Origin: a virus
Taxonomy: Duplodnaviria; Heunggongvirae; Uroviricota; Caudoviricetes
DNA: 64,000 bases
Strand: one strand, 5' to 3'
IMG/VR virus record: IMGVR_UViG_2579778842_000003
The notes beneath the pieces were generated by a model. It was given only the letters and a program-made list of their open reading frames with translations. It did no database searches and had not been told where the DNA came from. The stretch's first letter is position 1. Each line of letters opens with the position of its first letter. The translations under genes and the position numbers were made by a program. This document shows, piece after piece, positions 52,465 to 53,053 of the stretch.

Positions 52465-52887
52465 ATGTCATTCTTTTCTACATTAAAAACAGCTTTGTCT
52501 TTGAAGGAGAAACTTGCTGCTACTGGTGTTCTTGTTCTGATTTGCGCACTTGTTGGTGCTGGGTTTGCGTGGGAACGTCATCAGCTAAAGCAAGCCATGG
52601 AGAAAATTGGCAGTCTTGATCAGGCTGTTAAGGAACGTGATAAGTCAATAATGGATCTTAACCAGACCATTGAGACGATGAACAAAGCAGAGCAACATTT
52701 TCACAGCCAGGAAGTGAAAAATGAATCAGAACAAGCCAAGTATGCTGACAGGCAAATGGAACGAAAAGCTGAAGTTCAGAAACAACTTGTTGCGGCGGGT
52801 AATGTTCGCCAGCGTATTCCTGCTGACACTCAGCGGTTGCTCCGGGAGTCGATCAGCGAATTTAACGCCGACGCCGACAAAGGTTAA
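52465..52887 (+). CDS. Rz-like inner-membrane spanin candidate (N-terminal TM + coiled coil)
   Basis: Start at MSFF (52465) with AGGAGGA SD; TM segment TGVLVLICALVGAGFAW; overlapped at its 3' end by a lipoprotein ORF in another frame. Confidence 0.45.
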   Translation: MSFFSTLKTALSLKEKLAATGVLVLICALVGAGFAWERHQLKQAMEKIGSLDQAVKERDKSIMDLNQTIETMNKAEQHFHSQEVKNESEQAKYADRQMERKAEVQKQLVAAGNVRQRIPADTQRLLRESISEFNADADKG

Positions 52888-53053
52888 CCACCCTGCCCCA
52901 AAAAGTGCATTTATGTGCAGGATGCCAGAGTTTAGCAGTGAATATTTTGATGATCTGCCAGCGTATATCCTCGATACAGAAACGATGCTGATGGGGATTA
53001 ACAGGAAGAATCGCAACGTTAATGATTACAACCGCGCTATCAGCGGTAACTAA
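52802..53053 (+). CDS. small lipoprotein overlapping the previous gene (Rz1-like outer-membrane spanin candidate; P1 Mlp-like)
   Basis: Start at MFASVFLLTLSGC (lipobox LSGC); 83 aa. Confidence 0.45.
   Translation: MFASVFLLTLSGCSGSRSANLTPTPTKVNHPAPKSAFMCRMPEFSSEYFDDLPAYILDTETMLMGINRKNRNVNDYNRAISGN

Follow-up and report, generated by a model that had tools for sequence, protein, structure and literature searches.

Here, we examine an overlapping pair of genes, ppfA and mlp, at positions 52465-53053 of a 64,000-nucleotide stretch of viral DNA (IMG/VR record IMGVR_UViG_2579778842_000003; in what follows, the window is this whole stretch), and we weigh the evidence that their products form a two-component spanin consisting of an inner-membrane subunit (i-spanin) and an outer-membrane lipoprotein (o-spanin). 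As judged from nucleotide identity, the window is a P1-type phage-plasmid (Punavirus) in reversed orientation with respect to the P1 reference, and its source is an SJ46/JL22-like relative, P1 itself being excluded: a 901-nucleotide (nt) query around the pair is 99.9% identical to Salmonella phage SJ46 and Escherichia phage JL22, and 98.7% and 98.4% identical to P1 and P7, respectively. PpfA of the window is 99-100% identical to the proteins of P1 and SJ46; it differs from P1 PpfA by a single substitution (M45 vs I45), and Mlp likewise differs from its P1 counterpart by one residue (L23 vs W23).

Architecture of the ppfA-mlp pair

The features of the locus are as follows.

52465-52887, plus strand: ppfA, 140 amino acids (aa), with its ATG 6 nt after an AGGAGG Shine-Dalgarno sequence; predicted i-spanin
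52721-53053, plus strand: mlp, in the +1 frame, 110 aa as annotated in P1; predicted o-spanin precursor
52708-52723, plus strand: AGGAAG Shine-Dalgarno sequence and ATG of the long form of Mlp, inside ppfA codons Q82-N86
52801-52884, plus strand: dual-coding core, PpfA codons 113-140 and Mlp codons 28-55

The only hydrophobic stretch of PpfA spans residues 17-35 (19-residue Kyte-Doolittle mean of 2.35) and is preceded by three lysines (K8, K14, and K16), so that a type II topology (N-in/C-out) is predicted; by hydropathy, then, PpfA has the single N-terminal helix and the periplasmic remainder expected of an i-spanin. This remainder, of about 104 residues, is rich in Glu, Gln, Ala, Lys, and Arg. 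An AlphaFold2 model built from 14 homologues, of moderate confidence (mean predicted local distance difference test score of 67), places a helix at residues 13-110, a break at 111-119 (AAGNVRQRI), and a further helix at 120-137. Residues 38-72 follow an a/d heptad pattern (L41, A44, I48, L51, V55, R58, I62, L65, I69, and M72) with a score that was reached by only one of 2000 shuffled sequences. The initial annotation had described a 140-aa protein with an N-terminal transmembrane helix and a coiled-coil region, and the hydropathy of residues 17-35, the modeled helices, and the heptads all agree with that description; a helical periplasmic domain with coiled-coil character is also typical of i-spanins. 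The single cysteine of PpfA (C27) lies within the membrane helix, and none is periplasmic. In the JL22 record, the protein still bears the outdated product name 'endopeptidase Rz'.

Mlp carries the lipobox LSGC, with the Cys at codon 40 and a Ser at +2, and its mature product comprises 71 aa. The Ser at +2 predicts sorting by the Lol system to the outer membrane, and Mlp thus has the profile of an o-spanin: it is small, has a lipobox, and, lacking an Asp at +2, bears a signal for sorting to the outer membrane. A second cysteine (C66), placed in a C-x-M-P motif and invariant in relatives, would provide the periplasmic cysteine needed for a homotypic disulfide. At least one such cysteine was present in 507 of the 528 spanin systems in a 2018 survey, which also found i-spanins with zero Cys to be common (169 of 526 systems) and the combination of a Cys-free i-spanin with an o-spanin containing one or two Cys to be a common pattern (PMC6139136).

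Coding constraint and the start of mlp

The pair was compared with relatives from Salmonella, Cronobacter, and Klebsiella, in which PpfA identity is about 60%, with L008 (about 40%), and with L012, in which PpfA is detectable by profile only (E = 2.9e-8). Every one of them has, at the same position, a +1-frame open reading frame (ORF) of 109-111 codons with a lipobox (LSGC, LNGC, LSAC, LNAC, or LSSC) and a Ser at +2. Spanin genes are adjacent and may be embedded, overlapped, or separated; here, the overlapped arrangement in the +1 frame is kept in all relatives. When nine Mlp sequences were aligned (to 33% identity), 20 columns proved to be invariant, namely the lipobox Cys, the second Cys, and 18 others. 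To separate the contributions of the two frames, mean pairwise nucleotide identity was calculated from a gap-free 592-nt alignment of seven lineages, with the following values at the wobble position of ppfA.

Offsets 1-255 from the ppfA start, ppfA only: 0.58
Offsets 256-336, first 27 codons of annotated Mlp: 0.60
Offsets 337-420, h-region, lipobox, and start of the mature protein of Mlp: 0.89

At offsets 337-420, identity at the remaining two codon positions is 0.88 and 0.94, so that conservation extends to all three, and past the ppfA stop codon it is the wobble position of mlp that becomes relaxed (0.62 vs 0.87 and 0.90 for the others). From the core of the Mlp signal peptide onward, two frames are thus constrained at once, which argues that both encode protein and makes the C-terminal 30 residues of PpfA its most conserved part. 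By this pattern of conservation, the overlap consists of two genes, each under purifying selection.

Three start codons are candidates for mlp: ATG at 52721 (110 aa), TTG at 52790 (87 aa), and ATG at 52802 (83 aa; product beginning MFASVFLLTLSGC), which give overlaps with ppfA of 167, 98, and 86 nt, respectively. The Met encoded at 52802 is Leu or Val in other lineages, and a well-spaced Shine-Dalgarno sequence is absent. At codon 24 of mlp (52790), which aligns with Met1 of the P2 protein LysC, the P1 group has TTG and most relatives have ATG; this start is missing in one lineage (L100), and its Shine-Dalgarno sequences are poor. For the long form, 10 of 10 loci contain AGGAGG, AGGAAG, or GAGG at good spacing, followed by an ATG located 38-39 codons before the lipobox Cys. 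These same elements arise from conserved PpfA residues (Q-E-x-K-(D/N)-(D/E)), and in synonymous shuffles of ppfA the frame stays open and the ATG is kept in 50-84% of trials (the ATG alone in 50-75%). Conservation of the upstream ATG was therefore rejected as proof of the 110-aa start, and the upstream Shine-Dalgarno sequence and ATG are suggestive only. The invariant PpfA residues Q82, E83, and K85 share bases with AGGA(A/G)G, and either of the two constraints may drive their conservation. On these comparisons, ATG 52802 appears to be the least likely of the three candidate starts. An 83-aa lipoprotein overlapping the 3' end of the membrane-protein gene had been proposed at first; the ORF, its +1 frame, and the LSGC lipobox all stand, and it is the choice of the 83-aa start that is least supported. 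The mature 71-aa lipoprotein is identical whichever start is used.

With the upstream start, Mlp would have a strongly basic signal peptide of 38-39 residues, the N-terminal 23-27 residues of which evolve freely. We see a slim chance that this N-terminal extension is functional, for instance by slowing the export or maturation of the o-spanin or by coupling its synthesis to the translation of ppfA; if so, a spanin unlinked to the holin and endolysin genes, placed after tail-spike genes and next to the replicon, would gain its own timing control.

The annotation of mlp varies between records. Gene callers and some GenBank entries give only a remnant of 45-52 aa located after the ppfA stop codon and devoid of signal peptide and lipobox. 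Remnant or missing calls occur at L002 (2114-2254), L004-L006, L010, L011, and L099-L101; the 'Rz1' of JL22 is such a remnant (46 aa), and other records have no mlp call at all.

Likeness to known spanins

Profile comparisons connect both proteins with spanin families. PpfA matches PHROG 89 (1.2e-25) and, less strongly, PHROGs 739 and 214, and Mlp matches PHROG 30284 (2.6e-77) and PHROG 456 (2.8e-5); all five are named 'Rz-like spanin', a label that may partly stem from earlier P1-type annotation and is not fully independent. Matches to NCBIfam models fall below the cut-offs, both for Mlp with NF038368 (P2 Rz1-like; 14.7 bits, cut-off 27) and for PpfA with TIGR03495 (LysB; 19 bits, cut-off 92.75). 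In a single BLASTP comparison, Mlp is 37% identical to P2 LysC over 68 aa (E = 1e-7), and hhalign aligns the Mlp family profile with LysC at a probability of 88% (E = 3e-6), with the P-K, C-x-M-P, and D-L motifs in register. A distant relationship between Mlp and the P2 o-spanin LysC is thus probable.

The resemblance to P2 LysB/LysC extends to gene organization. In both systems, the lipoprotein gene begins in the +1 frame within the 3' part of the membrane-protein gene and passes its stop codon, the two proteins are of similar size (141 and 96 aa in P2), the lipoproteins have the motifs P-K...C-x-M-P...D-L in common, and the pair lies next to tail genes, R and S in the late operon of P2 and the tail-spike genes in P1-type phages. 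However, the P2 genes directly follow the holin and endolysin genes, whereas ppfA and mlp are unlinked from them. Like lambda Rz/Rz1, the pair combines a type II inner-membrane coiled-coil protein with a small lipoprotein of the outer membrane whose gene is in the +1 frame, and it offers cysteines for intermolecular disulfides (all predicted here). Unlike mlp, which reaches past ppfA, Rz1 is wholly embedded in Rz; Rz has two periplasmic cysteines where PpfA has none; and Rz/Rz1 lie at the end of the S-R lysis cassette and have no significant sequence similarity to PpfA/Mlp.

By homology, PpfA constitutes a narrow and separate family. When 1.84 billion representatives were searched exhaustively with a profile, only 34 matches were returned, nearly all from P1-like elements, and a word-indexed protein search, tblastn of 50,697 phage records, and scans of genome and viral contigs revealed next to nothing beyond P1-like elements of about 90-100 kilobases (kb), with one locus (L013, E = 2e-4) as a partial exception. 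Guilt by association with the lysis cassettes of other phages could not be properly established, because the family is too narrow. One very distant PpfA-like protein (E = 2e-4) is preceded by two holin-like membrane proteins and followed by a separate lipoprotein gene, a context that lends weak support to a spanin role. One 5.9-kb contig (L015, JAFAFU010000017.1) encodes a PpfA that is 100% identical to that of the window and belongs to a metagenome-assembled genome labelled 'Bacillota bacterium'; the likeliest explanation is contamination, during binning, by an enterobacterial P1-like plasmid.

P1 was reportedly, according to the abstract of a 2007 survey by Summer and colleagues, among the classic phages that had lacked annotated Rz/Rz1 equivalents until then. 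The two genes of the window are those of P1, with no substantial difference: in the P1 RefSeq record, they are named ppfA (P1_gp064, "possible periplasmic function") and mlp (P1_gp063, product "Rz-like spanin"), and other GenBank records label them Rz and Rz1. The spanin call is credited to Summer et al. (2007) and was made from predicted features (PMC9025707). The genes are described as partially overlapping and as part of an operon unlinked to lyz and lydA/lydB (Bednarek et al., 2022; PMC9025707). In the spanin database of Kongari et al. (2018), P1 is filed as an overlapped pair in a separate "P1" family; gp064 is listed as an i-spanin of 140 aa with zero periplasmic cysteines ("one in TMD", that is, the transmembrane domain), and gp063 as a protein of 110 aa (71 aa when mature) with one periplasmic cysteine, cleaved at position 39 according to LipoP and flagged "Too long signal sequence" (PMC6139136 and its supplement). 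Spanin identification for this pair is therefore already known and has been in print for nearly two decades. The i- and o-spanin labels are swapped in PMC9025707 and in Table S1 of a preprint (10.64898/2025.12.28.696737), where ppfA appears as the o-spanin and mlp as the i-spanin. The predicted membrane helix of PpfA and the lipobox of Mlp identify the former as the inner-membrane subunit and the latter as the lipoprotein, and the labels of the 2018 database are correct.

Considering topology, lipobox, +1 overlap, lipoprotein cysteine, and the PHROG and LysC matches together, we regard it as very probable that ppfA and mlp are the two-component spanin pair of this P1-type phage, with disruption of the outer membrane in the last step of lysis as their function. 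The overlapped i-spanin/o-spanin arrangement that was suggested initially from the letters of the window is thus well supported by these predicted features.

Genomic setting, rival explanations, and proposed role

Other features of the window that bear on the pair are listed below.

25-435: C-terminal part (136 aa) of lyz, encoding the signal-arrest-release (SAR) endolysin, cut by the window edge
428-682: lydD, holin-like, overlapping the end of lyz; as reported for P1, its product has RRRRR at the C terminus
51344-51628, plus strand: upfC, PAAR-type spike tip (PAAR match, 4.1e-9); virion baseplate gene
51580-52425 (extent as in the P1 annotation), plus strand: upfB, tripod on the spike; virion baseplate gene
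53065-53457, plus strand: upfA, last gene of the cluster
53471-53491, plus strand: terminator-like hairpin (AACCGGC...GCCGGTT) and T run found by consensus scan, 14 nt past upfA and before the oriR iterons
53775-54635: repA; oriR and repA come after upfA

Spanin genes usually, though not obligatorily, lie in or next to the holin-endolysin cassette, and ppfA and mlp do not. The distance to the lysozyme gene was first put at about 52 kb, which holds within the window (lyz/lydD at 25-682) and becomes about 43 kb by the shorter route on circular P1; such separation from lyz is a documented feature of lysis-gene organization in P1 (PMC9025707). The location beside the plasmid replicon was also correctly recognized, given that oriR and repA follow upfA, and the neighbors are as in P1: upfC and upfB precede the pair, and upfA, oriR, and repA come after it.

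All relatives share the order upfC-upfB-ppfA-mlp, and the gene after mlp is variable, so the conserved unit ends at mlp. In the P1 group this gene is upfA; in its place, a Phage_gp49_66 (PF13876) gene occurs in several relatives, from Salmonella and Cronobacter among others. Genes other than upfA follow mlp at L005, L006, L008, and L099-L101, sometimes with extra genes before the replicon. The products of upfC and upfB were assigned in the cryo-electron microscopy study of the P1 virion as the spike tip and the tripod on the spike, respectively. In the P1 annotation, upfB starts so as to overlap upfC by 49 nt, giving 281 aa; its PHROG match begins at residue 20, and in relatives and JL22 the protein has 258-262 aa and begins just past the PAAR gene. 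An ATG at 51638 after GGAG (aggagatatcATG) offers an alternative, and the shorter form seems more likely.

In the 64-kb window, mlp is the sole gene for an outer-membrane-type lipoprotein that adjoins a membrane-protein gene. A second lipoprotein precursor, of 275 aa (MKKTLISAAIILGSLCLTGC-D...), is encoded at 45373-46200 on the minus strand and matches PHROG 200 'lipoprotein' at 2e-113; by gene order, it is presumably P1 plp. Its Asp at +2 predicts retention in the inner membrane, and as it has no partner membrane protein, it is not a spanin candidate.

Since ppfA and mlp lie directly downstream of two tail-spike virion genes, late expression is suggested, and upfC and upfB, which have the same orientation, are probably in the same transcription unit. 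The hairpin at 53471-53491 probably marks the end of the upfC-upfA unit and would insulate the plasmid origin from its transcription. In RNA-seq data from a preprint on P1vir and hfq, the log2 fold change of ppfA went from 0 at 10 min to 3.1 at 20 min, next to 0 and 3.2 for lyz; these values fit late expression, with counts too low for significance in either gene. A one-mismatch search for an Lpa-dependent late promoter before upfC or ppfA, with the single annotated example as query (LPlyz, -22 box AAGTGATTT), gave 36 matches vs 38 expected by chance; it was thus uninformative and was dropped.

Several observations, in addition to the possible partial dependence of the PHROG label on earlier annotation, weigh against a spanin function. 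Pfam Rz (PF03245) and Rz1 (PF06085) are not matched by PpfA and Mlp even at E <= 1, whereas the lambda controls match these models at 2.6e-54 and 2.9e-20; neither protein matches Pfam LysC (PF23793), while the P2 control does so strongly; and the similarity of PpfA to lambda Rz and to P2 LysB is not significant (hhalign probability for LysB below 1%). The spanin role itself stands in the literature as a prediction (PMC9025707). The P1 record contains only predicted sigma-70 promoters before ppfA (P1ppfA and P2ppfA, inside upfB) and no late promoter. In a CRISPR interference (CRISPRi) study, the efficiency of plating was 0.24/0.19 for mlp and 1.3/1.2 for ppfA, making both non-essential for plaques, and lambda Rz was scored as essential with one guide in the same study. 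Spanin defects are conditional, however, being seen with divalent cations or without shaking (PMC9025707; PMC6139136), and for that reason the CRISPRi result is only weak counter-evidence.

These and other observations could be read in three different ways. The pair might form an envelope module of the plasmid prophage, acting in superinfection exclusion, receptor masking, or serum resistance (cf. the lambda Bor, T5 Llp, and Cor lipoproteins) and not in lysis. Its place beside the replicon and about 43-52 kb from lyz, its own predicted promoters, and its dispensability for plaques under CRISPRi would all suit such a module, yet those promoters are predicted only (a simple sigma-70 scan saw none on the plus strand upstream of ppfA), and the genes stand behind two virion genes in the same orientation. 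Similarities, moreover, run to spanin families and P2 LysC and not to exclusion lipoproteins, and the obligatory overlapped pairing with a type II coiled-coil membrane protein is a spanin signature; we therefore consider an envelope role highly improbable. It is likewise very improbable that the genes are a decayed or redundant spanin, the outer membrane being disrupted by a product encoded in the roughly 30-40 kb outside the window or its disruption not being needed. The non-essentiality of both genes under CRISPRi, the unusually redundant lysis set of P1 (LydA, LydC, and LydD; PMC9025707), and the lack of a periplasmic cysteine in PpfA would be in keeping with decay; against it, both frames are under purifying selection across lineages at 33-60% protein identity, the 169 of 526 systems mentioned above show Cys-free i-spanins to be common (PMC6139136), and no further spanin candidate turned up in the 64-kb window.

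The third reading, in which ppfA alone is real and the +1 lipoprotein ORF is a frame open by chance, might appeal to the frequency with which gene callers skip mlp or reduce it to a remnant without a lipobox, and to the first 27 codons of annotated Mlp, which are without protein-level constraint and stay open by chance in the 50-84% of shuffles reported above. This reading is refuted by the comparative data, and its probability is practically nil: from about Mlp codon 28, none of the three codon positions in the overlap is relaxed, the mlp-frame pattern continues past the ppfA stop codon, the lipobox Cys, the second Cys, and further positions are invariant in nine sequences down to 33% identity, and the Mlp family is related to P2 LysC. 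On conservation grounds, then, a chance ORF is ruled out.

As a spanin pair, PpfA and Mlp would act in the following way. Late transcription would proceed along with upfC and upfB. PpfA would be held in the inner membrane by its one N-terminal helix, exposing a helical, partly coiled-coil periplasmic domain of about 104 residues, and Mlp is predicted to undergo export, lipidation of the lipobox Cys, and cleavage by signal peptidase II, after which Lol would deliver the 71-residue lipoprotein to the inner leaflet of the outer membrane. If the pair works like lambda Rz/Rz1 and P2 LysB/LysC, the two proteins would bind each other by their C-terminal parts and form a bridge through the peptidoglycan mesh, probably as covalent homodimers joined via the single periplasmic cysteine of Mlp, because PpfA has none. 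Until the SAR-endolysin Lyz, whose release is controlled by LydA/LydB, strips the peptidoglycan, the bridge would remain inert; thereafter the complexes would be free to move and could collapse and fuse the inner membrane with the outer one, completing lysis. Physical linkage to lyz would not be needed in such a scheme, since timing is set by the removal of peptidoglycan and not by spanin synthesis.

The importance of these results beyond correct annotation is small. Our additions to what was in print are the map of two-frame conservation, the link to P2 LysC, and the correction concerning the start codon. The pair is recoverable from raw sequence even though gene callers routinely miss or shorten mlp, and it would belong to the lysis genes of P1, a workhorse phage in which these genes are spread over at least three operons.

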